Positions 5,138 through 63,719 of a stretch of DNA of 64,000 nt are shown piece by piece. The stretch is from IMG/VR virus record IMGVR_UViG_3300021387_000091, positions 5,979 to 69,978 of that record; one strand, written 5' to 3'. The stretch is from a virus (lineage: Duplodnaviria; Heunggongvirae; Uroviricota; Caudoviricetes). How positions within the stretch are numbered: position 1 is the first letter of the stretch; each line of letters starts with the position of its first letter. Made by a program: the position numbers and the translations under genes. The notes below the pieces were generated by a model, which was given only the letters and a program-made list of their open reading frames with translations, ran no database searches and was not told the origin of the DNA.

Positions 5138-5151
5138 TTCTTACGATATAT

Positions 5152-38971: not shown

Positions 38972-39368
38972 AATACTTTTTATAAAAATTTCTTATAACA
39001 TCTTCTCCAACAGAATTATCTCTATTTCTATCTCTTTCTATTGCAACATCTAATGGTACTTTAAATTCTTTAAATTCAATATCACATTGAGTTATATCTG
39101 CAACCTCTTTCCAACCATCGATATATTTTGGATTTAAATTTGTATCGTCAACAATTACATTCCATCCAAGAAGAATCGCCTCTTCCGCAATATCATATTC
39201 AACAGCTTCAACTAGATATTCGCGTTTGGGAAGTCAATACTTCCCAAACATTTTGCGAATATCATCACGGTTTACACGAATCCAATTAGAATTATTTTCA
39301 ACAAATTCTTTAGCTCATGTACTCTTTCCTGAAGCTGGAATACCTTGGCAAACTATTATTTTAGACAT
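38958..39368 (-). CDS. Polynucleotide kinase, kinase domain only (AAA_33-like; 136 aa; TGA=Trp)
   Basis: IIVCQGIPASGKST[W]A, RVNRDDIR, VIVDDTN and AIERDRNR motifs. Confidence 0.85.
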
Positions 39369-40032: not shown

Positions 40033-41413
40033 TATCCTCAATGTTTTCAATTCCAGCATCTGCATCTCTTCCTTCTTTATCTATGAATTTAAAACATTTT
40101 AATTTAAATGCTGCAGATTTCATATTATCAATTTTAATGACCAATCCCTCATGTGCTACTTTATTTACACAATGTGGAGAGTTCATTTCCATATAAAAGT
40201 TTTTATCTGATGCAAGACGATCTATAAAGTTTTCATTCCAATGATTCTCTTTATCTAAATCCGGATATAAATCACACGCTTTTCCATAATAACATTCTTC
40301 TACAGGAATTAATCCATGCGTGTTACACCAAATCTGTACTTCTCTTGGAGAAAATTCATGAACTAAACCATCTACATTTGTTAAGGTTATTCTATAAATA
40401 CGTACCTTAAAGTGTTTTTCTGGAGTATATGTTTCTCCAGCTTTTGGAGGAACACAACCATAATCATAGCTTTTTTGAATATATCCACCATTTGGAAGAA
40501 ATCCAACAATCTCATAATAAAAAGTCATTCCCTTCTGCAGATATGGCCTTAAATATTTGTCTGCTTCTCCCCAAACATCAACGCCATAATATCCGGCGGT
40601 TACATTTTTATTATAATATTGATTCTTTATTACACTTCTAGATGAATATAGATAATCATAAATTTCTTCATAAGGCTCAAATCCTTTTCCAGAAATAAGA
40701 TTTCCAATCCTCTTTATTAGACCGATTGGATGTTTTGTTAGCACATAAGCAGAAATTCCAGATGTACCATGTATCTTATAAGATAGATGAATTAAATCAT
40801 TTGGCTGTATTGCTGTAGGCTGTTTTCTAATTAATACAGTATCATAATGATATCTGAATTGAGTATCAATAACTTTATCAAAAGATTTTAGTTTATTTTG
40901 TCTTCCTCGATAATGTTTTTGAGAACTATCTCCAGAATTATAATGTTGTACAACATATTTTTTACAAACCCAAAAAGATTTGTCATTATGCTCTACTGTA
41001 TCGAATTCTGTATTGCAATCAACATCTTTAAGTTCTATATTAGTTGAATCTAATATCCAATTATAGAAAATATCAATTGGCAAAAGAAATCCTTCCGAAA
41101 CACAGCCTCTTAATTTAATTGCTTTAACCCTACCATTATCTTCAAACATTCCAGTCTGTTCTTGATTGGAATTTCTTTCTGAGTGACGATATAAGTTAGC
41201 GAACGATAAAAATTGTGGATTGATAGTAGAGCCGGTTGGGAAATAAACATATTTACCGGGTTCATTATCAATACCAATAATAATATTATATCCATCAACA
41301 TATGTACATTTTAATTTAGTTACTTCTGGATCTGGATGTGGATGAAAATCTTTCAGTTCCACAATCTTTGCTAAATAATTAATATTAGCATTTTTTGATT
41401 TTGTCAATCTCAT
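40025..41413 (-). CDS. RNA ligase (Rnl2/DRB0094-like, N-terminal OB-like domain; 462 aa)
   Basis: Nucleotidyltransferase motifs YKIHGTS (I), YYEIVG (III), EGLVIK (IV), FKLK (V); N-terminal RVKAIKLRGCVSEG. Confidence 0.85.
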   Translation of the reverse strand: MRLTKSKNANINYLAKIVELKDFHPHPDPEVTKLKCTYVDGYNIIIGIDNEPGKYVYFPTGSTINPQFLSFANLYRHSERNSNQEQTGMFEDNGRVKAIKLRGCVSEGFLLPIDIFYNWILDSTNIELKDVDCNTEFDTVEHNDKSFWVCKKYVVQHYNSGDSSQKHYRGRQNKLKSFDKVIDTQFRYHYDTVLIRKQPTAIQPNDLIHLSYKIHGTSGISAYVLTKHPIGLIKRIGNLISGKGFEPYEEIYDYLYSSRSVIKNQYYNKNVTAGYYGVDVWGEADKYLRPYLQKGMTFYYEIVGFLPNGGYIQKSYDYGCVPPKAGETYTPEKHFKVRIYRITLTNVDGLVHEFSPREVQIWCNTHGLIPVEECYYGKACDLYPDLDKENHWNENFIDRLASDKNFYMEMNSPHCVNKVAHEGLVIKIDNMKSAAFKLKCFKFIDKEGRDADAGIENIEDNA

Positions 41414-41443
41414 ATTTTCAATTTTAAAGAAGTTAAATATATA

Positions 41444-41503
41444 AAATGAGGTTCTATTCACAAACTATATTAAACTTATATAGAATTGAAAAGAACCCCA
41501 TTT
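41444..41503 (-). promoter_or_regulatory. Long imperfect hairpin (terminator, attenuator or processing site) upstream of the RNA ligase
   Basis: Minus strand AAAUGGGGUUCU/AGAACCUCAUUU plus UUCA/UGAA and CUAUAU/AUAUAG stems, followed by UUAUAU. Confidence 0.6.
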
Positions 41504-41667: not shown

Positions 41668-42094
41668 TTATAAACTCAAGAATTACATTAGAATCTACTT
41701 TTTGTCCAAATTTAGAAATACAAGCTTCTTGAAACTTTTTAAAAGATGATTTCTGTTTTGGTATATCAATTAACGTATTTAAGTAATCAATTATATCCGC
41801 TTTTAATGGCTCTTTTGGAAGTCATTTTGATATAATATCAGCTTCTATTCTTTCTTGAAGACATAAATCTAATTTTCCTACATTTTGATAGATATTTTCA
41901 TTCTCTTCACGTTCTTTAAACATTCGTTTAAGAATATCTATAGTAGAAAGATTAGAATCTTTAGATGAAATATAATTAAAATCGGATTTAATATTTCTTA
42001 ATCCAGTAAGTCTATTTTCATTTCTTGCAGCACCAAGAATCATTTCATTTTGTATTTCTGTGTCAAGAAATAATATAAATTCTGTATTATTCAT
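41657..42094 (-). CDS. GatB/YqeY-domain protein (145 aa; one TGA=Trp)
   Basis: LRNIKSDF...ILKRMFKEREE...Y...G..DL...E..EADIISK[W]LP follows the YqeY pattern. Confidence 0.75.
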
Positions 42095-42527
42095 TGTTAA
42101 GATAATTAAGAATCTTGTTTCCTATTACATCAACACTATCGTTAATCCAATCAGTTTCACGATCTATAACGCCAAAAGCATCATTAATATATGAACATAG
42201 TATAAAAATTAAATCGTTTATGGAACATCCAAGATCTGTATTCCACATGTCTATATTTATGTCATAGAATTTTGACATTGCTAAATGAACGTTTTTGATG
42301 GTATTTACAATAAACCAAATATCCTCTTTTGTTAAAGGATAAAGTGCATCAGTATCATCGTTAACCTGATTATCTTCAGGACGACATTTTGGTTCTTCAC
42401 ACTGTTTATTACTTTTAACTTTTATTTCAGAGACCATCTTATCAATAGGTGTTCCTGTTACAATTGAAAGTAGTTGTACGATAGGATCACTTTTTAGTTT
42501 ATCAATTTGTTCTTGTGTGTATTCCAT
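42087..42527 (-). CDS. Hypothetical protein (146 aa)
   Basis: ORF track; tight operon packing. Confidence 0.6.
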   Translation of the reverse strand: MEYTQEQIDKLKSDPIVQLLSIVTGTPIDKMVSEIKVKSNKQCEEPKCRPEDNQVNDDTDALYPLTKEDIWFIVNTIKNVHLAMSKFYDINIDMWNTDLGCSINDLIFILCSYINDAFGVIDRETDWINDSVDVIGNKILNYLNNE

Positions 42528-42696: not shown

Positions 42697-42875
42697 ATCT
42701 CGTAACATGAATTTATTTCTTCTATAATTTCTTCATCGGGAGGTACAGGCTCTGTTTCAAAAGCATAATCAAACCCACTTCAATTATCTACACCTGCGTG
42801 TTCAAGTGCATAATATTTATATGCAATCGTTGTAAGGTCAAAAAGATCTTCTTCGGATATTTTATAATAAGTCAT
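42684..42875 (-). CDS. Small acidic hypothetical protein (63 aa; TGA=Trp)
   Basis: MTYYKISEEDL...ALEHAGVDN[W]SGFDYA; TAATG overlap with the ligase stop. Confidence 0.6.
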
Positions 42876-45062
42876 TAGTCTAAATCAGATTTTCAACGAA
42901 CAGCTTTAAATACTGGAAGATTAGGTACAGGGTGCTCAGTATTTGTCATTCCAAAATATTTAACTGTACCCATTTGTCCAACTATTTCATCAAGATGTTC
43001 TCTATACCATTGTTTCTGTGCACGATCTCCAACAGGTTTTGCTTTAAATGGTGTACCATCTTCTGTTTCCATTGTAAAACACATATCTTCCTCTCTTAGT
43101 CCTTCAGCAATACCTGTAATTAAAAATTCTCCATCCGTGAAGATTTTAATTTTCATCATTCTATTATCTCTAGCTCCGGGCTTATATTCTTTTTCCGGAT
43201 CTCGTACAACCAAACCCTCATAACCAGCGGCTATTGCTTCATCATGCATTTGCATAATTTGATCCAATCCTTTGACAGGTCTATGCTCTACAAAAACAAT
43301 TCTAGAGTTATCTGGTCTGGAATTATTTAGTTCTCCGAGTTTTCTCGCCCTAAGTTTAAATGGAGACTGTGTATCTACAATATCATAACAATGAAAAACT
43401 AATTCTTTGTGTTCTTCTTCAAGAGTTTCTTTACGACAAAGTCCACTAATCTTCTGAAGGTTTCATAGATGGCGATATATTTCACCATCAAGAATTATTT
43501 CTGGATTTTCTTTAAAGATTTGTTTTACATAAGGATCTTCTCGAATGTAAGTTGCAGGAATATCATAATCCTGCCCACCTCTAGAAGAAGTACGAACTTC
43601 TCCATCTCGCATAAAGAGTAAACAACGTACCATAATTATATTAACTCTGAGACTCTTTATTCTCAGATTCTGCAGATTCTATATTCTCTGCAGTTTGGAC
43701 TATATCTTCAGTATATTTCTTTAAATAATTTGGAATATTTTTGCAAAACATATGTAATTGTTCAAAAGAAGCATTTTGTTTCATTGTATTTGCCATCATA
43801 GAAATAATGCAAACATTTCCTTTTATATATCCTTTTTCTGGAATTATTTTATCTAAAGAAGGAACATTTTCAGGATGTTCTCAACGGATAGATTCTCTTC
43901 AATTTAATGGTGTTTCAAGAATAGGACATTTTTCCGGAATAATCAAATCGTCTAATGTAATATTAAACGGAATGTTTGCTTTATCTGCTCTATTTTTTGC
44001 ATGTCTCAACATTTCTTTTAAATATTGTTCTTCCGTTAAAACACTTTTTGTTTTATGCTCTGTTTGTCATTGTTGTTTTCGTTCCTTCACCTCTGGTCTA
44101 GCATTGTATTCTGTCCAAGATGCACTAACTTTATCCAGATTATTTTTCTTTCACTCTCTACGTTTTGCATTCTCTTCTGCATGTCTTGCAGGATCTGCCA
44201 TAACTCGCTTATGATACTCTCGATCCTGTTCTTTTTTACATTCTCTACACAGAGTATTGTGACCACAAGAATTTCGTTTATCCGTACAAAATTCATCAAT
44301 AGGTTTAATTTGTCCACAAACTCTGCATTTATTATGTGTTCTATTTGCACCTTTGAGAATGATTTCTTCAGTTTCAGTTAAATTTTCAATTTGCATAATA
44401 CTAAATTTTAATTTGTTATTATACAAATATACAAAAATAATCTGACACCATCAAGTTATTTGATAAAATTTTAAAGAAATATACTGTTCCGTTTTCGTGG
44501 TACTTTACCGTCCAAATTTTGGATTCCTTGTACTAGTCTCTACACCTTTTAAGTATTACTACTTAACTTGGCTCGGTATTTCCATCACAGGATTCACCGA
44601 ATTTACGGAATTTAAAGACGGCATACGTTAAATTTTACCGTCATGCTTATAGCTTGCTAATCACTGTTTGTCTGTTTGTGAAGGTTTATCTCTGTCCATA
44701 ACCTTACAGAGCATTGGTTTTATCATTCCGGATTGATCTGTGTTTTCAGTAGGAAGTGCATCTTCTGCAGCCTGAAGTGTAAGATCTACAATACCAAGAT
44801 CTTTAATATTTTTATAGCCTTTGTCCAGATATTTTTTAAGTTCACTTTTATATTGAAGAGTTGCTTGTTCTGTTACTGTTCTTTGTGCTTTTCCCATTTT
44901 AATAATGATTGGTGGTGCAATAACCTGTTTTCCATTTATCAAACCACTTGAACGCTCTATTACATATGCATGTAATGGATCAGATCAGTCACATGAAATA
45001 TCGACTCTTCTACATTTGCCTTTTGCATCTCTAGCAATCAACAGATCTTTGAAACTCGCCAT
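42875..45062 (-). CDS. ATP-dependent DNA ligase, spliced: exon 1 45062-44637, exon 2 43630-42875 (393 aa; TGA=Trp)
   Basis: Joining gives YKHDG|VRCL (motif I), followed by LDGEIY, FHCYDIV, EGLVVR and MMKIK. Both exons are whole numbers of codons (142 + 252). Confidence 0.9.
43641..44396 (-). CDS. Intron-encoded HNH-type homing endonuclease (251 aa; four TGA=Trp)
   Basis: N-terminal CxxC...CxxC; C-terminal CPIL...PSLDKIIPEKGYIKGNVCIISMMANTMK. Confidence 0.8.
44424..44455 (-). promoter_or_regulatory. Intron-internal Bacteroidota-type promoter for the HNH gene
   Basis: CTTG, 20-nt spacer, TATATTTG; 28 nt upstream of ATG 44396. Confidence 0.7.
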
Positions 45063-45300
45063 AATTTGCCCAATTTAAAGGATGTCCACCAGTTGATTCA
45101 GCAGATGTTGCATTTTTATAAAAATCAAAATCTGTTTGAACGTATGGTGAATCTTTAGTAATTTTAGCTTTAGCTATATCGCGAATATTGTTTATTTCGT
45201 GAATTAATCTTTCGGCTGACGCTACTTCAATTTTATTATTTTCTAATTCTTGAAGTATAATATTCAAAAGTTTATTTAATGCAAGCTCTATATCTTTCAT
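45031..45300 (-). CDS. Hypothetical protein (89 aa)
   Basis: ORF track; overlaps the ligase start. Confidence 0.55.
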   Translation of the reverse strand: MKDIELALNKLLNIILQELENNKIEVASAERLIHEINNIRDIAKAKITKDSPYVQTDFDFYKNATSAESTGGHPLNWANYGEFQRSVDC

Positions 45301-45812
45301 TATTTACCAGTACTTCCAAATCCTCCAGAACCTCTTTCTGTTTCGTCAAGGTTTTCTACTTCATTAAAATGTATAGTTGGATAAGGAAGAATCATTATCT
45401 GACCAACCTTATCACCAACACAATACCAATCACAAGCATTCCATTGGTAATTAGCAGCGCTTCCTGGATTAACAATAGATGTTGTTGTCCATTGATAATT
45501 GGTCCCTTCACAAGGCTCATTTTCAATACGATAATTACGTTTAAAACGTAATTTTAATTCTCCTCTATAACCGGAATCTAGAACCCCTACGGAATTAGCA
45601 AGAGACAAGTCATATTTACTTACAGAACTTCTTGGGAAAATTAGCATTACATATCCATCTGGTAGTTCAAAGGAAAGACCTGTACCATATTCAATATATT
45701 TATCTGTTACATTGATAGATACAGCTGTTACATCCATTCCTGCATCTCCAAAATGAGCATATGTAGGAATTACAGCTTCTGGAACAAGCTTTTTAACATT
45801 AACATTAATCAT
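45300..45812 (-). CDS. dut: Trimeric dUTPase
   Basis: AGMDV, PRSS, GVLDSGYRGE, GQIMI and RGSGGFGSTG (motifs I-V). Confidence 0.95.
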   Translation of the reverse strand: MINVNVKKLVPEAVIPTYAHFGDAGMDVTAVSINVTDKYIEYGTGLSFELPDGYVMLIFPRSSVSKYDLSLANSVGVLDSGYRGELKLRFKRNYRIENEPCEGTNYQWTTTSIVNPGSAANYQWNACDWYCVGDKVGQIMILPYPTIHFNEVENLDETERGSGGFGSTGK

Positions 45813-50931: not shown

Positions 50932-50969
50932 AAAAAAATAAAGCCAGGCATCATTAGATACCCGGCTTT
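50932..50969 (-). terminator. Intrinsic terminator after the 174-aa gene
   Basis: Minus strand AAAGCCGGG/CCUGGCUUU followed by AUUUUUUU. Confidence 0.8.
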
Positions 50970-51009
50970 ATTATTTCTTTATTTAGCCGAAATCAGTTAA
51001 ATAATATTA

Positions 51010-51534
51010 TTAAAACTGACGCTCGTTACCGAACACGATATAGGTTCCTTCCTTAGTGTTGGTAGAAGGAGTGTACTCAAGAGTAAATGCAAGATCCTTA
51101 CCCTCAGTTACATGATAAACAATAATGCACTCGAGGTCAGTCTTAAGATCAGACATAAGCTTCTTAGCCTTCTTCTCAGCATCAGACTTCATAGATGCGG
51201 TTGCTACAACAGCACCAGTGTCTTTACGACGAACTTCATAAACACGCTCTACACTCTTCTTTCCCTCAACAACGTTATTGGTGTATTTATAGGGACGCTC
51301 ACGAGTATCAGCAGAACCACCGGCTACAACAACGATAAGACCAACACCTTCTGCGTTGGCAAGATGATTCTTAGCAAGAGCATCAACTGCAAACTCCTTG
51401 AAAGACTTATCAGTGACAGGAGCACCTGCATTTTTCCAACTTACAGTAACATTACGAACAACAGTAAGACCCATTTCGGCTGCTTTAGCCTTTGCCTCCT
51501 CAAGGGAGAATGCATTAATTTCAAAACGCTTCAT
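51010..51534 (-). CDS. Conserved hypothetical protein, probably highly expressed (174 aa)
   Basis: ATG 51534; markedly higher GC3 (AAG, GAG, ACC, CGT codons) than its neighbours; own promoter and terminator. Confidence 0.8.
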   Translation of the reverse strand: MKRFEINAFSLEEAKAKAAEMGLTVVRNVTVSWKNAGAPVTDKSFKEFAVDALAKNHLANAEGVGLIVVVAGGSADTRERPYKYTNNVVEGKKSVERVYEVRRKDTGAVVATASMKSDAEKKAKKLMSDLKTDLECIIVYHVTEGKDLAFTLEYTPSTNTKEGTYIVFGNERQF

Positions 51535-51645
51535 AATCAATAAATTTTTTAAAACATTAATCCTAGAAAGTTCTTTTACCACCTCTGCCTTTCTTAAAGA
51601 GGTTTTGATTTCTTTAACATTTTGTATCTCTCGAAATCAACAATA

Positions 51646-51677
51646 CAAAGATACAACTAATTTTTTAAACTTCCAAA
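51646..51677 (-). promoter_or_regulatory. Bacteroidota sigma-A type promoter
   Basis: TTTG, 20-nt spacer, TATCTTTG. Confidence 0.8.
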
Positions 51678-51702: not shown

Positions 51703-52758
51703 TTACTCAAACTCAATTGGAGTTTTCCATCCAAATATTTGACAAGCAGCTACTCTCTTTAATAATTCTTCAGCTTCATTTTTACCTTCTTTTAGCCAGC
51801 CAGAACTTACATTATAGCATCTACTTGCATAATCTGGAAGTGTTTGCACAACAAGCATATTAGCTTCAGATTTCCATCCAGCTTCTTTACTAGCACCATA
51901 TTTTTTAGAACAATATAGTGATAACACCCACATATACAGATACATCTGACGATAATAATGATAATGTTGCATAGATCCATATTCTTCATTCATAAACCAA
52001 GCAACAGGTTTACCAGTAGTTTTTAAATCATTTAAAGTAATAATTTTATTTTCTGCGTCTACTGTATAATTGTCAGCTTTCATTTTAAAACGAAGAGTTG
52101 TACATTTACATCCTTTATATGTTACAAGAAAATCAATAAAGAAAGCTATTTCGTTATATGATTCTATAGGATCTCCAAATACATCTATAGGATGTAATTT
52201 ATCCATTATTTGTTTGTTATCAAAACAAGATTCAAGACATCCAGAAACAGTATCATAATCATTATCTGATAAAAATATTTCTTCTACATTAGCTTTCTTC
52301 CATCTTGGTTCGTCTAATGCTTCCCAATAAGGAGTACATTTTTCAATAATCCCAGGGATTTTAGAATTAATACTATTTACATAATATCCAACCTCTCTAC
52401 TTGCTTCTCTGATAGTTTCTTCAATTGGAACATTATCTTTTTTATGTGTATAAACATAATCAGCAACTTGTCCAAGTTTAGCTGTAGGCTTGTGTAATTT
52501 TGGGCCTAAAACAAAACTATCTGGCTGAAGCAGACATTCATGTACAGCACTACCAATATTTAGTGAACTTGTTGTAAAATGAGGATTTGATTTATAAAGT
52601 TCTGGAGATCCTTCCTCTAATGGATCTATATATTTTAAACGACTATTGCTAATATATCCCTGATATTTTCTGGAAAAATATAAATCATCGCTAATATCAA
52701 GTCGTTTAATAGAATCCATTATAGGAACAATCTTAAAATCTGAAAAATTAAGTTTCAT
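51703..52758 (-). CDS. PD-(D/E)xK exonuclease (RecE/DUF3799-like; 351 aa)
   Basis: ISNSRL, GSAVHE, E..FF, KMKADNY, LNDLKTT, YYRQMYLY. Confidence 0.75.
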   Translation of the reverse strand: MKLNFSDFKIVPIMDSIKRLDISDDLYFSRKYQGYISNSRLKYIDPLEEGSPELYKSNPHFTTSSLNIGSAVHECLLQPDSFVLGPKLHKPTAKLGQVADYVYTHKKDNVPIEETIREASREVGYYVNSINSKIPGIIEKCTPYWEALDEPRWKKANVEEIFLSDNDYDTVSGCLESCFDNKQIMDKLHPIDVFGDPIESYNEIAFFIDFLVTYKGCKCTTLRFKMKADNYTVDAENKIITLNDLKTTGKPVAWFMNEEYGSMQHYHYYRQMYLYMWVLSLYCSKKYGASKEAGWKSEANMLVVQTLPDYASRCYNVSSGWLKEGKNEAEELLKRVAACQIFGWKTPIEFE

Positions 52759-53083
52759 CTTGTAATATTTTGTTTATTTTATTTATATGCGATTGAATAT
52801 AATCACTTCCAAAAATGTCTCCAACAATAAAGACTTTTTCTCCATCATATTCAATAAAATTATGGATTAGTTTATTATCAAACATTAGTTTAGATGCAAT
52901 AAAATACGGCAATTCATTAAGAACCAAATAATTTAAAATTGTTTGAAAATCATAATGAAAAACCAAATCCACACAACTGAATACATCATAAAAATAAGAA
53001 AGCCTATCTAATTTATCTAAATCGCCTTCTTTTAAATTATTATTATATGTATAAATAAGTTCTTCAGAAAAAGTGTTTTCCAT
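52748..53083 (-). CDS. Hypothetical protein (111 aa)
   Basis: ORF track; overlapping junctions. Confidence 0.6.
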   Translation of the reverse strand: MENTFSEELIYTYNNNLKEGDLDKLDRLSYFYDVFSCVDLVFHYDFQTILNYLVLNELPYFIASKLMFDNKLIHNFIEYDGEKVFIVGDIFGSDYIQSHINKINKILQDET

Positions 53084-53835
53084 TATTTTATAGGCAAATT
53101 TAAATTATAAATTCTTCTATGTCCAACATTGTAATATTTGTTATGTGGCGCATCAACTAAATAACAAAATACTCCTGCATCAATAGCATCTTTGTAATTT
53201 TGAAATTTATCATCACAAAGAATACTAACATTGTGTTTCTTTAATAATTCTACCTTACTTTCATTCCAAGGAACACAATATACTGGAGCACAAGGAAACC
53301 CATTTCTTTCCAGATTCTTTTTAGTCCATTCAACAGGAATGGATCTACTTGTTATATATAAATCAGGTTCAAATGTTGGCATGTGTTTTGTTGGAAGAGT
53401 TGTCCAAAATTCTTCATCTTTAGATAACTCTTCCAATTTAGCTTTCATTTCATAAGTTCCATTCCAGTAATCATTACATTTAATTCCTGTTCTTTGTTCA
53501 AAAGCACCTATGAAATCTAAACACACATCATCTATATCTAATGCAACAATCGGCCGATTTATAGGAAGAAATTCCCGATTATCACCAGCAGGATTTATAT
53601 AAAAATACTCACTAAGTATTAATGCATTTGTTGCTACTTCTGCAATAGATAAATTTCCTTCTGGTGTAAAATCTTCTCCTTTTTCAAAAGCTAATAAATG
53701 CTTTTTAAGTGAAGACAAAACATCTGTCCAATTAAGGCCATGTTTCCATTCTCCAACCTCATGTTTATCTAACTTTGAATTTAGAACCTTATGAACCTCC
53801 TCTATACCTCTAATTGGGATTAGATCGTATCTCAT
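53083..53835 (-). CDS. dATP/dGTP diphosphohydrolase-like (DUF5664) domain fused to a HAD 5'(3')-deoxyribonucleotidase
   Basis: N-terminal RYDLIP...EEV..V...W.HG...SLKKHL..FEKGED; C-terminal ALDIDDV, ITSR, DDKFQN. Confidence 0.7.
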   Translation of the reverse strand: MRYDLIPIRGIEEVHKVLNSKLDKHEVGEWKHGLNWTDVLSSLKKHLLAFEKGEDFTPEGNLSIAEVATNALILSEYFYINPAGDNREFLPINRPIVALDIDDVCLDFIGAFEQRTGIKCNDYWNGTYEMKAKLEELSKDEEFWTTLPTKHMPTFEPDLYITSRSIPVEWTKKNLERNGFPCAPVYCVPWNESKVELLKKHNVSILCDDKFQNYKDAIDAGVFCYLVDAPHNKYYNVGHRRIYNLNLPIK

Positions 53836-55111
53836 ATTTTCTAGTATCTACGTTAAAGATAATTCGGTTTGTAACAAAATAATAATCATCATCTATTTTT
53901 ACAATATCTGAACTACTCTCTGTTCCATCCGGATTAACAATAATATTTTCGTCTATATAGCTTTGTGGATAAGTATCTCCTCCATATCTACCGTATACAC
54001 AAACCGCCTCTTCAGAATTAGGTACATAATCATCTAGACCCTCGCAAAACCAGCAACAATCATCACAATAATAAGCTTCTGCCCATTCTGACCAATGTAA
54101 TTCATCGGGAGTATCTCCATCATATCCATGGAAAACTGCACCACAATTTTCACAGGTATATGTATCTCCTCTATATTCGCCATCGGTAGAATCTAACACA
54201 AAAGCACCATTACCATTTGTGGTATAAATAGTCTTATCTCCATCAAAATATCTAAAAGAATCTACATATGGATAATATTCATATGATTTCTTTAACGTTA
54301 TTTCGAACGCTCTAGTATTTATATCTGTATAATCATCATCTGGACTATACCATTCCTGATCCTCTCCTGTACTTAGCAAACTATTATTTGCTCTAATCCA
54401 CCATTTATGCTCCTTAGCATAATCAATAAAACAATTCTCAAGATAGTCAAAACAAGTATAAATCCTATCCAATATTGTAACACCGTCTACTTCCCAAACA
54501 ATAGCACGTCCAGTAAGCAATCCATCCTTTTTAGTAATTAGCATTTTTGCATTATCTACATACATGTCAAAGAAAGGTTGTGCATGTGAATAACGCATAC
54601 AACTATTTCCTAATGTACCATCACACTTATAATAATGTTCATCTAAATACCAATAACGAATGTCTTCACCTTCTACTAATTCAAACTCAGCACATTGACA
54701 AAGTTCAGCCTTGAATAAGTTAGTGAAAATTTCCCACTCTCTTGTTTTAAATTCACGTTTAAGTAACTTTTGGAAAATTCTTGCAGCTTTTCCAGTTTGT
54801 CGATTTCTTCTAGCCCACGTTCTATTAGGGCCATATTCTGGTTCTTTTCCTTTTGGCAAAAAAGATACTTCAAATTCTCCAAGTCTTATAGTAATCATTC
54901 TAACTTCATCAGTTATTCTAGAATTAATTACCTTATCAACAATATCTTCTCCAAGTTGTGGAGTAATACCATAAGACATATCGTTAAAATTATTAACGAT
55001 AATATCGATATCAAGTAATTCTTTTGCAATTGGATCAGAAGATTTATTATAAATTGATTCTATTATTTCTCTTAGAGAACCACTTAAAATTGGTAAAAGT
55101 TTATCCATCAT
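53810..55111 (-). CDS. Conserved phage hypothetical protein (433 aa) with a Cys-rich C-terminus
   Basis: SCMRY, GRAIVW, LDRIY and YPYVDSF motifs; CxxC...YYCDDC. Confidence 0.75.
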   Translation of the reverse strand: MMDKLLPILSGSLREIIESIYNKSSDPIAKELLDIDIIVNNFNDMSYGITPQLGEDIVDKVINSRITDEVRMITIRLGEFEVSFLPKGKEPEYGPNRTWARRNRQTGKAARIFQKLLKREFKTREWEIFTNLFKAELCQCAEFELVEGEDIRYWYLDEHYYKCDGTLGNSCMRYSHAQPFFDMYVDNAKMLITKKDGLLTGRAIVWEVDGVTILDRIYTCFDYLENCFIDYAKEHKWWIRANNSLLSTGEDQEWYSPDDDYTDINTRAFEITLKKSYEYYPYVDSFRYFDGDKTIYTTNGNGAFVLDSTDGEYRGDTYTCENCGAVFHGYDGDTPDELHWSEWAEAYYCDDCCWFCEGLDDYVPNSEEAVCVYGRYGGDTYPQSYIDENIIVNPDGTESSSDIVKIDDDYYFVTNRIIFNVDTRKYEIRSNPN

Positions 55112-55152
55112 ACTCCTTCGTTGATAGTTATATTAAGTATCATCAATGGGTA

Positions 55153-55353
55153 TTAATTACTCATATTTCTTAGCATTGAAATAATTGCATGCGCTAAGTT
55201 TACAATAATATCTTTGCTTACATCTTCATCTTTTTTTATTTCTGGCTCAATTTGAACTTCACTGAATTCAAGTGAATCAGAATTAACATCATAATTCATT
55301 GGAATTACAACGATTCTATCTTTATTGTTAATTGTTATTTTTATATCTGCCAT
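55153..55353 (-). CDS. Hypothetical protein (66 aa)
   Basis: ORF track. Confidence 0.55.
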   Translation of the reverse strand: MADIKITINNKDRIVVIPMNYDVNSDSLEFSEVQIEPEIKKDEDVSKDIIVNLAHAIISMLRNMSN

Positions 55354-56183
55354 AATATACTTTTTCCTCCTTTTGTAGAATGTAATATATAATTTATAGA
55401 ATTACTTACAGGATATGTTCTTAAAATAGATGAGTCTTTCGTAGACATATAACAAAAGCTATCCATATAAGGAAAGTTTGAATAATTATTTTTCAATGGT
55501 ATTTTTATATATAATTCCTTCGGATTCTCATAATTATCTTCTGGTAATAGCCATTGTTGTACTTTGCCATACTCAACATATACGTTTTTATTCAAACACC
55601 CCCATTTCATTGATTTAGCATATTCATAAAATTTATGCTCAATAAAATTTTCAGTAGTATAAACCCTATCCATTAAATAAGATCCCTTATATGGCCATAA
55701 TATTGCTCTCCCTAATATACGCCTTCCACGCTTTGGAGTCATAATCAACATCTTAGCATTATCTTCATATATCTTAAAATAATTATCTTTTTGGCATTTA
55801 AGATAACGCATGCAACTCTTATTTAAAGTACCATGACTAGGAACATAATTAGCTCTAAAATAAGCTTTAGTAATATCACCGCCTTCAATTATTTGAAAAC
55901 GACCTGTATCAGAAAGAATAGATTTTATTTTCTCACAAATATGAGTAATTTGTGCTGATGTAAGACCACTATACGCCTTTTTTAAATATTTACCAATAGT
56001 ACATTTTTGATACAAATAAATAGATTCAATACAATTTAGTTCTTTTACAATTGTAAAATAAGCATATTTATCATCAACTATTTGATCTCGATACTGAAAA
56101 GTATAATTATCAGATTCGTACTGATCTAAATCTTCATATCCATTAAAGATATGTTTCGCTAAAAAATCTCTTATATAAAACAT
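55341..56183 (-). CDS. Paralog of the 53810-55111 protein (280 aa)
   Basis: SCMRY, GRAILW, MDRVY and FPYMDSF; start reassigned to ATG 56183, downstream of the terminator. Confidence 0.7.
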   Translation of the reverse strand: MFYIRDFLAKHIFNGYEDLDQYESDNYTFQYRDQIVDDKYAYFTIVKELNCIESIYLYQKCTIGKYLKKAYSGLTSAQITHICEKIKSILSDTGRFQIIEGGDITKAYFRANYVPSHGTLNKSCMRYLKCQKDNYFKIYEDNAKMLIMTPKRGRRILGRAILWPYKGSYLMDRVYTTENFIEHKFYEYAKSMKWGCLNKNVYVEYGKVQQWLLPEDNYENPKELYIKIPLKNNYSNFPYMDSFCYMSTKDSSILRTYPVSNSINYILHSTKGGKSILWQI

Positions 56184-56187
56184 AATA

Positions 56188-56223
56188 AATAAAAAGTGAG
56201 GACTATTAAATGTCCTCACTTTT
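56188..56223 (-). terminator. Intrinsic terminator overlapping the resolvase stop
   Basis: AAAAGTGAGGAC/GTCCTCACTTTT perfect 12-bp inverted repeat followed by TTATTT on the minus strand. Confidence 0.8.
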
Positions 56224-56649
56224 AGAATAAGGTTTAATTAATTTATAAAATAATGATTTATCCATAATTACAGCTTCGCCAACAGATATAATATTAACCT
56301 CTCTTTTTTCTTGTTTTGATCATATAATTACAAAATCTTCTGGATTAACTGTAGACTCAGATCGTATTTTAAAGTATTGAGGAATATTTTGTGTACACTT
56401 TAATTGAATTGAACATGGAAGTTTATTTTCTTTATCAATTAAGTCTACTTTATTATCATCCATGGCCTTAGATTCACTTCTACTTGTAACAATCCCAGAA
56501 AATCCCAAATCTCTTAACTCTTTAGCAATTTTAGTCTCATAGTTATGTCCTTTTGTACGACTATAAGCTTTGCTTCTTGTTCTTTTCTTTTTAGGAACTT
56601 CTATCTCTTCAAGTGTAGGAAGTTCTACATTTTTGTTACGTTTCGCCAT
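56206..56649 (-). CDS. PD-(D/E)xK nuclease, Holliday-junction-resolvase-like (147 aa; one TGA=Trp)
   Basis: KGHNYE..IAKEL...G....TSR.ES...D...VDLID...IQLK pattern. Confidence 0.7.
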
Positions 56650-57667
56650 AATATTTTTTTGCTTTGTTAACTAATTCCAGCGTTTTAGCATATCCAAATT
56701 TTTTTCTATAATCAGAAAAATCTTTTGCGTCGTTTCTATTTAGCAATAAACACTTTAATTCTGGATATTGTTTGTGAATCTTATTTGTAGCCCTAACTCC
56801 AGGTAAATCATTATCGTACAATAAATATATATTTTTAAATTTACTTTTAACTTTATTATATTGCGCTTCCGTTAAAAATAAATTTTCAGAACATGGTGCA
56901 ATCGCAGGTATTCCAAATTCATATAAACACATTACATCTTTTAATGATTTCGTAATAACTAAATAGTCGCCTCCATCCTTAGGCAACATGTGTGCACCTT
57001 GAATATATATCGATTTCCAGTTAGATATAAATCTAGCTATTGTACGTTTTGGTCAATAAATACGTCATTGTTCTATACCATCTTTAATACCTCCATAATA
57101 TCCAAAAACAGGTTGATCTGAAACATTAGTATAAAACAAATTACTATTTAGTCAAACAGCATCTATAGGATAAACTTGAAATTTTGTTAATGTTGAACGA
57201 GAGATACCATATCTTCCTCATCAATCCAATTCTTGCTGCTTAAACTCCCTAGTTTGTATTTGAATAACTGCTGATTTCTGCTCTTCAAATTTAGTGCCAG
57301 TTGGATTAATTTTTGCTTTATTTATTTTTAAATCAGGCCTATTTATAATTCCAAAATCGTTTGCAATAATTTGAAGTGCCATATAATAAGAGACATTGAA
57401 TAAAGCCATTACATAAGCAAAACAATCTCCACTAAAATTAGATCCGAAGTCTTTCATTATTAATCGACCACGTTTATTTCTATATAATCCAACAGTAGGC
57501 TTATGATCTTGTCTTAACTTTGAACAAAAGAGTCCCTTTTTAATAGGGACTCCATAATGTTCAAAAATTGTTTCTTCAGAAACTTTACTCAAAATTAATT
57601 CTTTTGTTAGTGGTTGTTCTTCTTCTAACCCAACGGTTTCTGAAAAATCAAATAGTATGTCTCCCAT
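56636..57667 (-). CDS. dnaG: DNA primase (343 aa; five TGA=Trp, including a TGA-TGA pair)
   Basis: FCSKLRQDHKPT, KDFG; TOPRIM ITKSLKDV and YDNDLPG; fragments in frame. Confidence 0.9.
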
Positions 57668-57676: not shown

Positions 57677-58366
57677 TTAGAACGGCAAATCGTCAGAAGT
57701 ATCGTTTACACCAAGAGCTTCACCTATTCCATCTAGCGTAGAATTAGAAGTAGCCATATTTGTAGGACGACTGTTAGCCGCAGCAGCAATCTTTTTCTGC
57801 TCAGACTGAGACAAAACCAAATCGTGTCCAATAAATCTGGTTGAAATTCCGAGAAGTCCTGCACGATTAATTCTAGCAGGAAAACCAGGAATCTGATTAA
57901 ATCCATTATTTCCAGGAATAAGTTTTACTTCTACAGACTTTCCAATATAAGGATCGGTAAGAGCTTTTGATAACTTAACAAGTTGTTCAAATGTAGAAAT
58001 TTTGCTCATATCTACACTCTTTCCGTTTACAACAACGGCTTTATTATCAATCATTTCTCCAATAGCTGGATCTAGAGCATCAAAAATTTGACGCAAGGCA
58101 ACCATGAAATGATCTTTTTGTGAAGGCTGTAGTCCATAATTTCCTTCAACTCTTTCATCTGAAGTAGGTTCAAAGAAATTATTTGTAAATTCACCATAAC
58201 CATCAATATCAAGAGTAAGAGTCATGGTATTATAAGTCTGACCCTTTGCCTGAGAAGTTACAGAACCAAGAGTTAAACCATTAAATTTTGCAGTATGAAT
58301 ACCTGCTGAAAGAAAATTACTAGTGTCTTTAAGTCCAGTTGTACTGGATAGATCAAACATTCCCAT
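57677..58366 (-). CDS. Putative single-stranded DNA-binding protein (229 aa)
   Basis: Lies between the annealing ATPase and primase; acidic C-terminal DDLPF tail. Confidence 0.65.
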   Translation of the reverse strand: MGMFDLSSTTGLKDTSNFLSAGIHTAKFNGLTLGSVTSQAKGQTYNTMTLTLDIDGYGEFTNNFFEPTSDERVEGNYGLQPSQKDHFMVALRQIFDALDPAIGEMIDNKAVVVNGKSVDMSKISTFEQLVKLSKALTDPYIGKSVEVKLIPGNNGFNQIPGFPARINRAGLLGISTRFIGHDLVLSQSEQKKIAAAANSRPTNMATSNSTLDGIGEALGVNDTSDDLPF

Positions 58367-58388
58367 AATTATTTAGTTATTAAAATTG

Positions 58389-58937
58389 TTAAAATGGCAG
58401 ATCATCATCTGCGTTAGAAGCTGTTATTGCTTCAATCTCTTTATCTATTTCTGAATTATTTAATGCTTCTGCATCAGAATTTTCTTCTGATAAAGTTTCA
58501 TCGTCATTAGAGCTAGTTATTGGAATTAATTTCCAAACACCATCTTTATATTCTTCTAAAGTAAAAAATGTTCCAAATTCAACAAGAGTATTTCTTTTTT
58601 CTCCTCTAAAAGCTATAGTACCTTTTTGTGTTAGTCTATTACCGTCATGTCGATCTGTAAATATTTCAGCTTTTCCAATGATAGGTACTGCTTTTCCAAT
58701 ACCTTCGTTTATATACTGAATTGAAATTCTATCATCTGCTTTTGCATCAAGCTTAGCCAATGCTGTTTTTGACAGCTGTAATTTATTTTCAAGAACCTCT
58801 AGGTCTGGACGTTCATCACATTCAATAATAGGAGAACTATTTGCAGAAACACTTCTACTTTTACCTTCAACATCTACAACTTTAACATTTGTAATAGATT
58901 TTGAAGTTTCATTAAAATCAAAAGAAATTCTAAGCAT
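58389..58937 (-). CDS. Hypothetical protein with an SSB-like DDLPF tail (182 aa)
   Basis: ORF track; ends NADDDLPF. Confidence 0.65.
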   Translation of the reverse strand: MLRISFDFNETSKSITNVKVVDVEGKSRSVSANSSPIIECDERPDLEVLENKLQLSKTALAKLDAKADDRISIQYINEGIGKAVPIIGKAEIFTDRHDGNRLTQKGTIAFRGEKRNTLVEFGTFFTLEEYKDGVWKLIPITSSNDDETLSEENSDAEALNNSEIDKEIEAITASNADDDLPF

Positions 58938-59664
58938 TTTCAGAAGGAAATATACGTTCCCAATGATAAATTATATTACCATCATCTTGCATTTCTCCAA
59001 GTACAACATCTTTGTTTCTAAGATGTTCTGGCCTAGAACCACAATCTACAAATTTATCATTACTGTTAAAACTTAAAACAGAATTAGAATCATCATCTCT
59101 ATATAAATATCCAATTGCATCAGATCTAGAGGCCAAAACTCTACCAGTTTTACCGGTTAAATCAATAACTTTTGCGGTGATATCACTGTTTGCTACAGCA
59201 GAATCTTTTACATGGCATACTAAAATTATATTAGGTACTACTTTTTGAAACATGTCAATTACCATTTCAATAGCATCTCTAATTTTACTATACCCAGCGC
59301 CCATTGGTGCATCAAGAACGTCTTTGCCGACAAACTTAGAACCAGCTGGAGTATCTAAATAAAGTTTAAGAGCCAATGGCTTTACAATTTCTTCAAGCTT
59401 TGTAATAGTATCTAGCGTAAGATATTTATAAGGACATCCTGCAGCTTTAATTGCTTTAGCAATATCTTTTAAATCCTCTAAATTTTTTGCTTCAACTTTA
59501 AGGGCATCAATATATTTATAACCACCCTCTAAATCAATAATTAAATTATTAGGAAGTGCAGCAAGCGCTGTAGATTTGCCTATTTTTGGTTTACCAAACA
59601 CAATTAAATATTGTGGATCCTGTAGATTAGCTTTTATTTTTGTTTTTGGTAATTCAATTGCCAT
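58930..59664 (-). CDS. AAA_24 / Sak4-like P-loop ATPase (244 aa)
   Basis: VFGKPKIGKST, IIDLEGG, LTLDTIT, ILVCHVK. Confidence 0.8.
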   Translation of the reverse strand: MAIELPKTKIKANLQDPQYLIVFGKPKIGKSTALAALPNNLIIDLEGGYKYIDALKVEAKNLEDLKDIAKAIKAAGCPYKYLTLDTITKLEEIVKPLALKLYLDTPAGSKFVGKDVLDAPMGAGYSKIRDAIEMVIDMFQKVVPNIILVCHVKDSAVANSDITAKVIDLTGKTGRVLASRSDAIGYLYRDDDSNSVLSFNSNDKFVDCGSRPEHLRNKDVVLGEMQDDGNIIYHWERIFPSENA

Positions 59665-60780
59665 TTAAAAACTAAATGTTATAGTTTTTTTCTCTTCTTC
59701 TCGTTTTGGAGTAGAAGAATCTTTTTGTTTTGTTTCTTGTCTTATTTTACAGGGTATATTGTTATACTCTGATTGGAATTGTGTATAATCCGTTATTTGA
59801 TCTGGAGGAGGTAATGCTAAAAACCATCCAACAGAACCTGCAAATCAAGTATTTATTACTTGATCAGCAATACCATATCGATTTTTGGAAATTATCAACG
59901 AACGATGCCATCTAGTTAATCCTTGATCTCCAAGTATTTTATAACCTCTATATGTTGCTAATTTTTCTCTAAATGGATAAAATAATTGAATAACAACATC
60001 ACTAGCATCGCCAACAGCACCAGTCTGTTTAATATCATTGAGGGTTGGTTCACTTAATTCTGCTTTACGACGATCCATAGAAGAAGCATCACGATTTTGT
60101 TGCATTAACATAAATCAAGACATATTTAATTTATTTTTTAATGTAACCATATAAGATGCAGCTGTATCTATTTCTTGTTTCAATTCTCTTCCTTCTGATG
60201 GATTCATAAGTAGACCGTGATCTATTACTCCAATTAAACGTTGATTCGGATTTTTTGCAAGATATCTTTTCTTTCCTTCAATCTCTTCAAATGTGCCAAA
60301 TCTACTTGCAAAATTTAAAGCTTCATGATATAAAGTTTTGCAATTAAGCATACTGTCTACAATGATTAAATGTTCTGAAATACCATCTATTCATTTTTTA
60401 GCAGATTTTAGATATTCTATATTATCGTCAGAAATAGGACTTTGAAATGATAAAATATCATCTAATGTTAAATAAACCCCAAATTCTTCGGCACAATATA
60501 AACTCATTAGTTTTGCAAGTAACACATTTGCAGGTAATTCAAGGCTAAAATATAAAAAATAAACTGGATATTTTTTATCAATATGTCGCAACATATGATA
60601 CATTATAAATAAAATAAGTGCAGATTTACCAACTGAACTAGCTGCTGCAATAGTATAAAACCTTGAAGGTTGAATACCACCAATTACTTTATCTAATTTA
60701 GGAATTCCAGTAGATAATCCTATATTTTCACCTCTTTTACCTTTTTCAATTTGAGCTCAAAGTAATTCAAGATCAGTCAT
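59665..60780 (-). CDS. dnaB: DnaB-like replicative helicase (371 aa; four TGA=Trp)
   Basis: STGIPKLD..IGG, AASSVGKS, YFSLE, VIDH, QQNR, DASDVV, KNRYG. Confidence 0.9.
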
Positions 60781-62411
60781 TATATAGATTCATAAACATT
60801 AAATGTACTTTCCACTTGACCTTCTTGTGGATGATCTTTAAGTTCTTTTAAATCTATTCATTTCTGACTTGCTACAAACTCTAAACATTACATTCCATAT
60901 TATTCGCAAGATAATATGCGTTCTCTTATGAACTGCTATATATCACTATATAGATTCGACTATTTCTTTATCCTGTTTAGGATACACTCCATTTCCATCA
61001 CCATTAGCTTGTGATGTACTCCCAATAGGGATAGTCTGTGAACATTTCGAATAATCAAAAAGGTTAATATATATTTTCTTTATATGCTCTATAAAAGCAT
61101 CCTTATTTATATTCATTTTCATTCTATTACAAATATCACAACAAGTTACACAATTATCTATTGTGTATCCTTTTGATGAATCCAAACGATCTATTCCATT
61201 TCTTAGGAATTTTTCATTTGTTTTATTATATTTATAATCAGACGAATATTCTTTAGGTTTACTATTACAATAAAAACAATTACCAAATATAAGATTTCCA
61301 AATTCAGAATCTGTTAAATTTCATTCAAGGCCTCTGTCTGCTGCACCTCTCATATAGGAGCTTTTTACACAGTTAAATGGTGCATCTAATGTCGGAATCT
61401 TATGATTTCCACTTTTACATACATCACATTCACATTTTGTAGCAATTATGGTTTTTAATGATTTAATAGATTCTGTTCCACATTTTAAGCATTTTACTCT
61501 ATAATATCTAGATGTTCCTTTTTCTTCTACAAATTCTAATATTTCATAAACATCTGTTTTAAATCCAACATAATTTTGAATAGTTTTATTTTTCTTACAT
61601 TGAATACAGATAGCACGATATATTTGTCTTGTTGTAAATATATATCCACAATCTAAACATTTTAAAGTAAATAAATAACTAGCTGTTCCCGAAATTCTTT
61701 CTTTAGCTATTATTTTAAAATTACCTTTTTCAGATTCGACTTTGCTGCCGATTATCAATTTTCTTCCCATAATAAAAATTTAAAAATTAAAATCATCTAT
61801 ATAATTTGTTATTACAAATATACGAAATTATTTTTAAATTTCCAAGAAATGAATTGATTTTTCCGCAATTAAAAGTGTTTATTACCTTTATATTACTATA
61901 AAGGAGGACTTCAAATTAAAATCCCAAAGTTTATGTGATTATGTTCTTTAGCCCATTTTAATATTTCCATAATCTCTTTATGAGTTTCGGGATTATGTTT
62001 TATAGTAGAACTATAATGAAAGAAAAAATCATCTAACGACATAAACTTTTTACTGATATTTCGCAATGATGCAAGTTTTCCATTTATTGGAATGAACGCA
62101 GGATATTCTTCAAAAAGTTCTTTTCCTAATTTTCCAGAACCTTTAATTCATCCCTTTAAAAAGTTTTTATTAAACTCAATATCATCGGGATTATATGATT
62201 TTGGATTATAATCTTTATGAATAATACCCTTTTCTTTTAGAGATTCAAATAATGATTTTAATCTAGATTGACCTCCATTAGAAAATCATTTTGCAAAATA
62301 TTCAGCATGTCCCTCTTCTTCTTGTGCAAGAAACGTTAAATAAACAAGAAGAAGTTCATCTGCTGTTAGATTATACGCAATCATTAAATTTAAAATAGTA
62401 TCTATTTCCAA
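60780..62411 (-). CDS. Conserved protein upstream of DnaB (possible initiator/helicase loader), spliced: exon 1 62411-61921, exon 2 60885-60780 (198 aa; TGA=Trp)
   Basis: TTG start. Exons of 491 + 106 nt give 199 codons, junction INFGI|LEFVASQK[W]. The stop overlaps the dnaB ATG (TAATG). Function is inferred from position only. Confidence 0.75.
60946..61770 (-). CDS. Intron-encoded HNH homing endonuclease (274 aa; one TGA=Trp)
   Basis: Multiple CxxC pairs; CFYC...NGIDRLDSSKGYTIDNCVTCCDICNRMK. Confidence 0.85.
61815..61846 (-). promoter_or_regulatory. Intron-internal Bacteroidota-type promoter for the HNH gene
   Basis: CTTG, 20-nt spacer, TATATTTG; same arrangement as in the ligase intron. 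Confidence 0.7.
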
Positions 62412-62491: not shown

Positions 62492-63719
62492 TTAAAATCT
62501 AAATTCTATATTTGGAGAATATTCTCTCTCCCTTGTTTCAATTTGTTCTCCTGCGAGAACTTGATCTAATTGTGCTTCATTAATAGTTATCACTTTAGAT
62601 GTTTTGGAATTAGAAAATCAATTTACCTCTTGAGTTCCTTTAAGAATTAAGGTAAAAATTTCAGCAGTTTTACCTTCCTCAAATCTAAGACTTCTTCCAA
62701 GTCTCTGTGTTTTACGAATCTTAGAAGAATCTGTATGCAATATAACCTCAAGGTTTATTCCAGCTAAATCTAATCCTTGATCTGCTGCCTTACTTGTATT
62801 TAATACCCCAGCTTTATCAGAATTAAATTTTTCAATAACTTCTTGATTTTCTTTTGCTTTCTTTTGAGAGTGCATTGTATATCCAATTCCAATAGATTCT
62901 GCCATTTTAATTGTAGAAGAAAATGTTATAGCTTTACTATTAGGACGCGCTTCAAGAATTTTTCTTGCAATTTCTATTTTTTTTGGATGACTAAGAATGA
63001 AATCTTTACGAGCTTTCATTGTTCTCATAAAAGTCATAGCCATTGCAGTAACTGTTTTTACGTCCTTTTGATGTTGTTTTGCTCAAATAGCTCTTCTTAT
63101 AGGATTTGTCGCAACTTCCATTGCTGTACTAAATTCAAAATTAAAAAAAGCAAATGCACTATTAAACTTTTTATTAATTTCTTGATATTCTGTAAGATCT
63201 ACATCAAGCATTACAACATATTCCTTATGAGGAGAAACTCAACCATTTTTTTCAGCTTCTTCTATTGTAATTCTATCACAAACAGGAGCAAACTTTTCAA
63301 TAAGAATATGTCTCATATCTAATCTTTCAAGTGTTCCTGTTAAACAAAGTATAAATTGATATTGTACTTTATCAAACACTTGAATGAACGTCTCTGCTCC
63401 TGTAAGATGCACTTCGTCTACAATTAAAAGATCACAACTTCAATTCAATTTAATAACACTATTGATAATTTCAACCCTAGCATTTAGTCCAAGACCTCTT
63501 TCATCGATTTGTTCAATTCACTGATCTTTTAGAATTTGTGTTGGTACAACAACTAAAACTTGAGAACTAGGGTTTTTAGTTACAAAAGCATCAATTAGAT
63601 TTAAAGCAACTCTAGTTTTACTTTATTTAACCGAAGCCGGTGCACGCAACAATACTTGCTTTGCCACCAGCTTCTAGTCATCGTTTAAGACATAGTTTTT
63701 GTCTTGCTGTTCTGTCCAT
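62492..63719 (-). CDS. SF2 (DEAD/DEAH-like) helicase, 405 aa if a 10-nt interruption at 63620-63629 is removed; otherwise disrupted
   Basis: CTGFG|KT Walker A, VVVPT, IVDEVH, LTGT, DQGLD, QRLGRSLR; 30 + 376 codons on either side of the gap; TGA=Trp. Confidence 0.8.

Follow-up and report, generated by a model that had tools for sequence, protein, structure and literature searches.

In crAss-like phages, the reassignment of stop codons is mostly confined to late-gene regions (Yutin 2021, PMC7886860), and a code-switch model, in which the switch serves as post-transcriptional control, has been proposed by Borges (preprint 10.1101/2021.08.26.457843; published 2022). The same work found that the recoding of replication genes is variable, with these genes mostly recoded in Lak phages, and tested gene families such as integrases for preference or avoidance of the alternative code (Borges, 10.1101/2021.08.26.457843). 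Among Zeta phages, TGA occurs in structural and DNA-processing genes (Lera paper, PMC12386605). Here we describe a 64,000-nt window (bases 5979-69978 of the 176,795-base IMG/VR record IMGVR_UViG_3300021387_000091; 32% GC) in which TGA-using and TGA-free genes are interleaved, and within this window an uninterrupted group of six TGA-free minus-strand genes at positions 51703-56183, which we call the island. By "window" we mean this whole stretch of analyzed DNA; coordinates marked "genome" are those of the full record.

Like the recoded gut phages described previously (Ivanova 2014; Yutin 2021; Borges), this phage has its own suppressor tRNA and uses in-frame TGA as tryptophan (Trp) in some of its genes only. 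Unlike them, it has recoded its replisome and ribonucleotide-reductase genes, interleaves TGA-free genes with these cistron by cistron, and keeps its capsid gene free of TGA. The usual picture is a split between blocks, with early genes standard and late genes recoded; here the boundary runs between adjacent replication cistrons. The general separation of standard-code from recoded genes has already been published (Yutin 2021; Borges 2021/22), and what is new here is the cistron-level mosaic that one clade shows in its replication module, a direct measure of selection, and the membership of the capsid gene in the constrained class.

Two described phages invite closer comparison. Lera (PMC12386605) belongs to the same group and resembles this phage in genome size, tRNA block, opal suppression and, largely, the gene order DnaB - primase - resolvase - exonuclease; its capsid gene, too, is not flagged with TGA. 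The two differ in that the replication module of Lera is nearly TGA-free and in that its hydrolase-like "5' nucleotidase" is flagged with TGA. In phi14:2, the replicative module forms one early class served by an injected virion RNA polymerase (RNAP), with no promoter motif, and host-type promoters drive the capsid genes, the capsid transcript being the most abundant (Drobysheva, 10.1101/2020.03.07.982082). phi14:2 is likewise crAss-like, and in our genome, too, host-type promoters precede the capsid operon and none precedes the island, DnaB, or RNA ligase. Unlike this phage, however, phi14:2 uses the standard code, and no translational sub-tier is known there.

The ends of the record share 108 bases, which marks it as a complete circular genome of 176.7 kb. 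Two giant plus-strand open reading frames (ORFs) of 3244 and 3446 aa, a 475-aa major capsid protein matching Pfam Crass_capsid at 36.5 bits (cut-off, 27), and primase homologues found across crAss-like phages together place it in the Zeta group, whose genomes are circular, measure about 145-190 kb, and carry a tRNA block, as this one does. The capsid candidate was recognised through Pfam; PDB sequence searches with it and with the 784-aa protein next to it returned no match. The source genome is that of a large gut or rumen Zeta-group crAss-like phage in which TGA is read as Trp. Hosts of such phages are Bacteroidales in the literature (PMC12386605; 10.1101/2021.08.26.457843). For comparison, we searched IMG/VR with the primase protein, which yielded 80 loci, and took five whole contigs, G001 to G005 (G000 being the present genome). 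G001 to G004 measure 146-170 kb, with primase identities of 71, 57, 57, and 53%, respectively, and G005 is a human-gut Zeta phage of 164 kb with a primase identity of 48% and few TGA codons.

Using ARAGORN, we found 18 tRNA genes in the genome, including, at genome c[80187,80280], a suppressor tRNA(UCA) that lies within a 45-kb, nearly TGA-free minus-strand block; tRNA(UCA) is also present in G001, G002, G003, and G004. The tRNA is 93-94 nt long in this genome, in G002 (c[162826,162919]), and in G003 (c[113801,113893]), where it has an extra arm with CCA in its loop, and it is of ordinary length (72-74 nt) in G001 and G004. Promoters were seen upstream of the suppressor tRNA in two of five genomes. 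We also looked for release factor and TrpRS genes in the phage genome and found none. In orthologue alignments, the residues opposite TGA were W (336), Y (61), F (46), and L (29), and the profile opposite TGG was the same; moreover, the TGA positions of NrdD aligned with aromatic or hydrophobic residues of PDB entry 4coi. Because TGA columns share the residue profile of TGG columns, TGA encodes Trp and not Gly.

Read with code 4, the genome falls into three zones. The virion, packaging, lysis, and RNAP genes on the plus strand are TGA-rich. The minus-strand block of ∼45 kb at genome 75.5-121 kb, which holds all of the tRNAs, is almost TGA-free, its clear exceptions being two homing-endonuclease genes (genome 89547-90560 and 93448-94236, equivalent to L132:547-1560 and 4448-5236, minus strand). 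Finally, the replication block on the minus strand (genome 42.7-75.1 kb, for the most part within the window) is a mosaic; here, too, homing-endonuclease genes with TGA occur, at window positions 43641-44426 and 60946-61770. Gene-to-gene heterogeneity in TGA use was significant within every zone, the late genes included. In three small minus-strand ORFs of the TGA-poor block (genome 101037-101348, 106739-106993, and 107748-108020), the only or last TGA lies at the very end of the reading frame as called with code 4. TGA may be the real stop of these ORFs, which would fit a standard-code reading of the block. Together with the suppressor that the phage carries, the Bacteroidetes-type promoters kept before two operons in 5/5 genomes, and the Bacteroidales hosts given in the literature, these TGA positions are an indirect hint that the host may use the standard code.

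The island is the longest TGA-free run of the minus-strand replication block. The original prediction, made by hand count, had assigned 7, 6, 10, and 4 TGG codons to an exonuclease, a DUF5664-type hydrolase gene, a 433-aa protein, and its paralog, and had all of them ending in TAA or TAG; our recount reproduced each figure, so that the six island genes together hold 27 TGG and 0 TGA codons, and the stop codons are TAA or TAG in all six. The remainder of the minus-strand replication and nucleotide-metabolism block holds 83 TGA and 55 TGG codons (60% TGA). At this block ratio, the binomial probability of 0 TGA among 27 Trp codons is 1.6e-11 (Fisher's exact test, 4.8e-10), and when the Trp codons of the strand were shuffled 100,000 times, no TGG run was longer than 22, against 27 in the island (P <= 1e-5). 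The G+C content of third codon positions (GC3) is 0.148 in the island versus a genome mean of 0.196, and the G-ending share at the A/G pairs of Lys, Glu, Gln, Leu, and Arg is 0.18 versus a mean of 0.228. Since neither value is raised, composition does not explain the absence of TGA, and the predicted contrast withstood the GC3-controlled binomial test proposed for it. Recounting also agreed with the exclusive use of TGG predicted for the RNA ligase (5 codons), a putative NTase (4), and the dUTPase (3), and with the predicted prevalence of TGA in the RNAP (predicted as roughly 23 TGA to 13 TGG), primase, DnaB, and superfamily 2 (SF2) helicase, the C-terminal part of the last holding 4 TGA; the counts of the others are given in Table 1. 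The NTase label itself, behind which only synteny with Lera stands, was not confirmed by Pfam or PHROGs.

This gene-by-gene partition is kept in the related recoded genomes G001 to G004, where such a check had been proposed. The TGA share per gene in this genome correlates with that of G001 to G004 pooled (Spearman 0.69), and the pooled share has two peaks, a sharp one at zero and a broad one at 0.6-0.7. Across eight loci of the closer clade, the island orthologues contain 7 TGA and 157 TGG codons, compared to 136 TGA and 41 TGG in the flanking genes of the same loci (primase, DnaB, helicase, RusA-like, and two unnamed genes). In a more distant group (G005, L013-L035, and, by its Table S1, Lera), nearly all of the replication module is TGA-free, which makes the mosaic specific to the clade of G000 to G004. 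The comparison of these sequences indicates that within this clade TGA has spread into replisome genes and not into the island.

To measure codon turnover, we took aligned columns with TGG in this genome in which the orthologue has kept Trp. In genes that use TGA, the relative carried TGA in 103/184 such columns (56%), compared to 6/195 (3%) in TGA-free genes (Fisher 1e-33). Taken by itself, G001, the closest full genome, gave the same picture, with TGA at 68/118 columns in permissive genes and at 3/92 in TGA-free genes, as did the replication block alone (17/39 in TGA-using versus 2/78 in TGA-free genes; P 4.6e-8). As a synonymous control, we took conserved Lys, Glu, and Gln columns with a G-ending codon in this genome and scored the A-ending synonym in the orthologue; its share was 67% for TGA-using genes, 74% for the island, and 62% for the remaining TGA-free genes. 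Third-position G-to-A change is thus saturated in all classes and only the change from TGG to TGA is blocked, which argues that TGA is actively excluded. On these alignments, we consider it very probable that purifying selection maintains the exclusion. Orthologous codon turnover combined with a synonymous control provides a simple test of selection versus recency for any recoded phage clade, and it picks out the genes for which translation without the suppressor matters.

As to the reason for this constraint, timing of translation, protein yield, portability between codes, or a mix of these are all candidates. We infer timing as the cause, with about an even chance of being right: the island would exclude TGA because its translation is independent of UGA suppression. 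The partition itself has a permissive class, made up of the replisome, ribonucleotide reductase, homing endonucleases, and most virion and lysis genes, in which TGG and TGA replace each other without restraint and level off at ∼60% TGA, and a constrained class, including the island, from which purifying selection removes every TGA. Under the timing reading, the constrained proteins would be needed before the suppressor tRNA accumulates, or whenever the suppressor is limiting, and ribosomes would meanwhile stop at UGA in adjacent cistrons of shared transcripts. The outcome would be a two-class translational partition on top of the transcription programme. A comparable arrangement exists in Streptomyces, where the single bldA tRNA-Leu(UUA) gates genes that contain TTA and genes without TTA are translated regardless. 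The bldA codon differs from the one considered here in being a rare sense codon of the cell and not a stop reassigned by a virus, and there is no homology between the two systems. Since the replicative strand of phi14:2 is a single early class, any ordering inside it would have to be post-transcriptional, and by this analogy a translational sub-tier inside the early transcription class is plausible. The near-absolute exclusion of TGA from enzymes, namely the hydrolase (0/31 pooled with the relatives) and the RNA ligase (0/30), also favours timing. If the timing reading is true, the code switch would gate replication as well as lysis.

Several observations weigh against timing. The capsid protein (0/23) and the neighbouring 285-aa (0/14) and 294-aa (0/16) proteins are TGA-free (TGA/TGG pooled over five genomes); these are late genes with very abundant products, so the exclusion of TGA cannot by itself mark early genes, and "TGA-free" is no simple synonym of "early." Of the original claim that the TGA-free genes form a pre-switch class, the gene-by-gene partition stands, being conserved and under selection, and the equation with early expression is contradicted by the equally TGA-free capsid region. 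On its strand, the island also follows TGA-rich genes (polymerase, helicases, DnaB, and primase) and comes right behind a conserved terminator-like hairpin, a position that would not be expected for the earliest genes. Within TGA-using genes, TGA and TGG positions are alike, and TGA does not cluster at the 5' end. This even spread suggests that such genes are permissive rather than purposely locked until UGA suppression is established, as had been proposed for the replisome and virion genes. The class also leaks: the exonuclease has 4 TGA and 1 TGG in G003 and 1 and 5 in G004, the 234-aa gene next to the RNA ligase has 2 and 2 in G004, and the kinase has 2 and 3 here. In addition, a single codon can define two classes only, and the three-tier programme first suggested therefore shrinks to two tiers, the third having been inferred. 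Lastly, the confinement of the mosaic to G000 to G004, with a TGA-free replication module in G005 and Lera, counts on the same side.

A more specific and more tentative possibility is that the code switch has shifted in this clade from the late genes to the start of replication, where it would act as a replication checkpoint. Within a single early transcription class, translation of the replisome and ribonucleotide-reductase genes would depend on the suppressor tRNA, and the recombination, nucleotide-pool, and RNA-repair genes of the same operons would stay TGA-free and so act first. Replication would have to wait for the conversion of the cell's translation and perhaps also for a remodelling of the purine pool.

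Among the rivals to timing, yield survives best, and even so we think it rather unlikely. It holds that competition from host release factor 2 keeps UGA suppression incomplete throughout and that every TGA thus lowers the output of protein; TGA would be purged from abundant proteins and tolerated in low-copy enzymes. The strict absence of TGA from the capsid and neighbouring head genes in all five genomes fits this well, given that the capsid transcript of phi14:2 is the most abundant, as does the contrast between the TGA-free, bulk-acting Sak4-like protein and candidate SSB and the TGA-rich primase, helicases, polymerase, and reductase. The TGA share of ∼60% in permissive genes is itself lower than the A-ending share of ∼80% at other A/G pairs, which suggests a general mild cost of TGA. 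High expression, however, fits the island poorly, because the GC3 of its genes is ordinary (0.13-0.18), unlike that of the capsid gene (0.27) and of the gene at 51010-51534 (0.32). Several of the TGA-free genes, moreover, encode enzymes (hydrolase, RNA ligase, and dUTPase), and proteins whose genes carry 15-23 TGA codons are made all the same, implying that late read-through is high and the cost per codon small.

We regard portability as improbable. Here, TGA-free accessory genes would cross between phages that differ in code, be it standard, TAG-recoded, or TGA-recoded, with only code-neutral alleles persisting. The family of the 433-aa protein has the expected distribution, being missing from the more distant Zeta genomes G003 to G005 and having homologues in uncultured phages of ∼0.6-0.7 Mb, Cellulophaga podophages, and other tailed phages, and the code does differ between Zeta branches (Yutin 2021, PMC7886860). 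Against this, the synteny of the island is conserved and the identities of its orthologues rank as those of the primase do; the TGA-free genes of the replication block are no patchier than the TGA-using ones (on average 2.56 versus 2.40 orthologues in four relatives); and the homing endonucleases, the most mobile genes here, carry TGA.

Recent acquisition from standard-code phages, which would have left too little time to gain TGA, was the refuter named by the original prediction, and we find it very improbable. The limitation of the 433-aa protein and its paralog to closer relatives speaks for it, but the exonuclease and hydrolase have orthologues in all five relatives, the composition of the island is typical, and TGG and TGA are randomised between this genome and G001 in permissive genes and not in TGA-free ones; codon turnover together with saturated synonymous change in the island thus refutes it. 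Chance or a general bias toward G-ending codons, for which nothing more than the low Trp count per gene can be cited, can practically be dismissed in view of the probabilities and composition given above and the repetition of the pattern in eight related loci.

Table 1. Features of the island and of other parts of the window (window coordinates; TGA/TGG are codon counts in this genome)
Feature	Position	Strand	Family match	TGA/TGG	Remarks
Exonuclease, PDDEXK, DUF3799/exonuclease VIII-like	51703..52758	-	PF12684, 33 bits (cut-off 26); phrog_412, E 2.7e-18	0/7	island
111-aa ORF	52748..53083	-	no family	no Trp codons	island
dATP/dGTP diphosphohydrolase N-domain (former DUF5664) plus C-terminal part	53083..53835	-	PF18909, 52 bits (cut-off 27); phrog_37590, phrog_801	0/6	island; putative
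433-aa protein	53810..55111	-		0/10	island; weak GNAT-like core, C-terminal Cys-rich beta hairpins
66-aa ORF	55153..55353	-		no Trp codons	island; orthologue in G001
280-aa paralog of the 433-aa protein	55341..56183	-		0/4	island; probable start ATG 56181-56183
Terminator-like hairpin, 12 pairs plus T run	56192..56223	-			over stop of RusA-like gene, ∼10 nt before first ATG of island
Single-gene unit 3' of island	50937..51677	-			promoter 51646-51677; gene 51010-51534; 16-pair terminator 50937-50972
RusA-like resolvase	56206..56649	-	phrog_244	1/0	TGA-using flank
DNA primase	56636..57667	-	Pfam Toprim_2, phrog_12622	5/1	TGA-using flank
229-aa gene, 182-aa gene, Sak4-like annealing protein	57677..59664	-	phrog_124 (Sak4-like, 58930-59664)	0/0, 0/1, 0/1	three TGA-free genes
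DnaB-like helicase	59665..60780	-	phrog_19	4/2	TGA-using
RNAP gene	21677-32017			23/13	
234-aa gene	39361-40065	-		0/4	adjoins RNA ligase; putative NTase
RNA ligase	40025-41461	-	phrog_968	0/5	
Second dUTPase candidate	42087-42527			0/3	
dUTPase	45300..45812	-	Pfam PF00692, 53.8 bits	0/3	

Within the island (Table 1), the exonuclease orthologues of G001 to G004 have TGA/TGG counts of 0/7, 0/4, 4/1, and 1/5. The resemblance of this protein to RecE/DUF3799 proteins and the Sak4-type annealing protein nearby suggest a role in recombination; the degradation of host DNA that had been proposed for it finds no support. The DUF5664-type gene, whose orthologues in the four relatives hold 0 TGA and 25 TGG, encodes a putative dATP/dGTP-diphosphohydrolase-like enzyme, as predicted from its family match above the cut-off; a sequence search for solved relatives in the PDB returned none.

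The 433-aa protein and the 280-aa protein are true paralogs (BLASTP, 37% identity, E 5e-35), and two orthologues of the former have TGA/TGG counts of 0/11 and 1/9. PHROGs, Pfam, and PDB sequence searches gave no function for these two proteins or for the 111-aa and 66-aa ORFs. Full-length homologues of the 433-aa protein number more than 200, at 40-98% identity, many of them on contigs of 160-172 kb, and tblastn placed the family in the uncultured ∼0.6-0.7-Mb phage genomes (7-15 places per record) as well as in Cellulophaga podophages. Its AlphaFold model has a predicted local distance difference test (pLDDT) score of 89 and, in BFVD, matches proteins without an assigned function from marine phages and other tailed phages. 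We do not assign it to the GNAT acetyltransferases, as the Foldseek match in the PDB was weak (E ∼2e-3; template modelling [TM] score 0.17 by query and 0.38 by target) and Pfam gave no match. At the nucleotide level, the island had no match among GenBank phages.

Putative transcription signals frame the island on both sides. A hairpin with a T run stands at the junction of the RusA-like gene and the island in 8 of 11 related loci, with stem sequences that differ; it may terminate, attenuate, or stabilise transcripts. On the 3' side, the gene at 51010-51534 encodes a GC3-rich protein of 174 aa with no family match, and a Bacteroidetes-type promoter precedes its orthologue in 5/5 genomes; the unit looks highly expressed and driven by host RNAP, amid genes without such promoters. 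Bacteroidetes-type promoters upstream of the capsid operon are likewise kept in 5/5 genomes, and none was recognisable when we sought them before the island genes, DnaB, and RNA ligase. One candidate upstream of the RNase H gene, where the TGA-using block begins, was present in 1/5 genomes and was dropped. A scan for sigma-70 promoters gave 66 sites against 65 expected. The island and the suppressor tRNA share a strand, with the island ∼18-23 kb downstream.

Among the other genes of the window, the primase orthologues of G001 to G004 have TGA/TGG counts of 6/0, 2/1, 3/2, and 4/4, and the orthologues of the 229-aa, 182-aa, and Sak4-like genes are all TGA-free. SSB is a candidate label for the 229-aa protein, taken from synteny with Lera alone (Table S1, PMC12386605). 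Further users of TGA are NrdD, NrdG, DNA ligase, and dNMP kinase. The RNA-ligase orthologues have counts of 0/8, 0/3, 0/5, and 0/9 and no internal stops, and those of the adjoining 234-aa gene have 0/2, 1/3, and 2/2.

Outside the window, a 338-aa adenylosuccinate-synthetase-like gene (L137:365-1381, minus strand, equivalent to genome 88364-89380) adjoins a homing-endonuclease gene and seems to lack the P-loop start. It could not be assigned as PurZ or PurA, the PHROG label being PurZ-type and the best PDB matches being ordinary PurA. This gene and the dATP/dGTP-diphosphohydrolase-like gene of the island raise the question of a modified-purine pathway, on which we make no claim. Within the window, the DNA ligase and SF2 helicase genes appear to be in pieces around endonuclease genes or short gaps, at 42875-45062 and 62492-63677.

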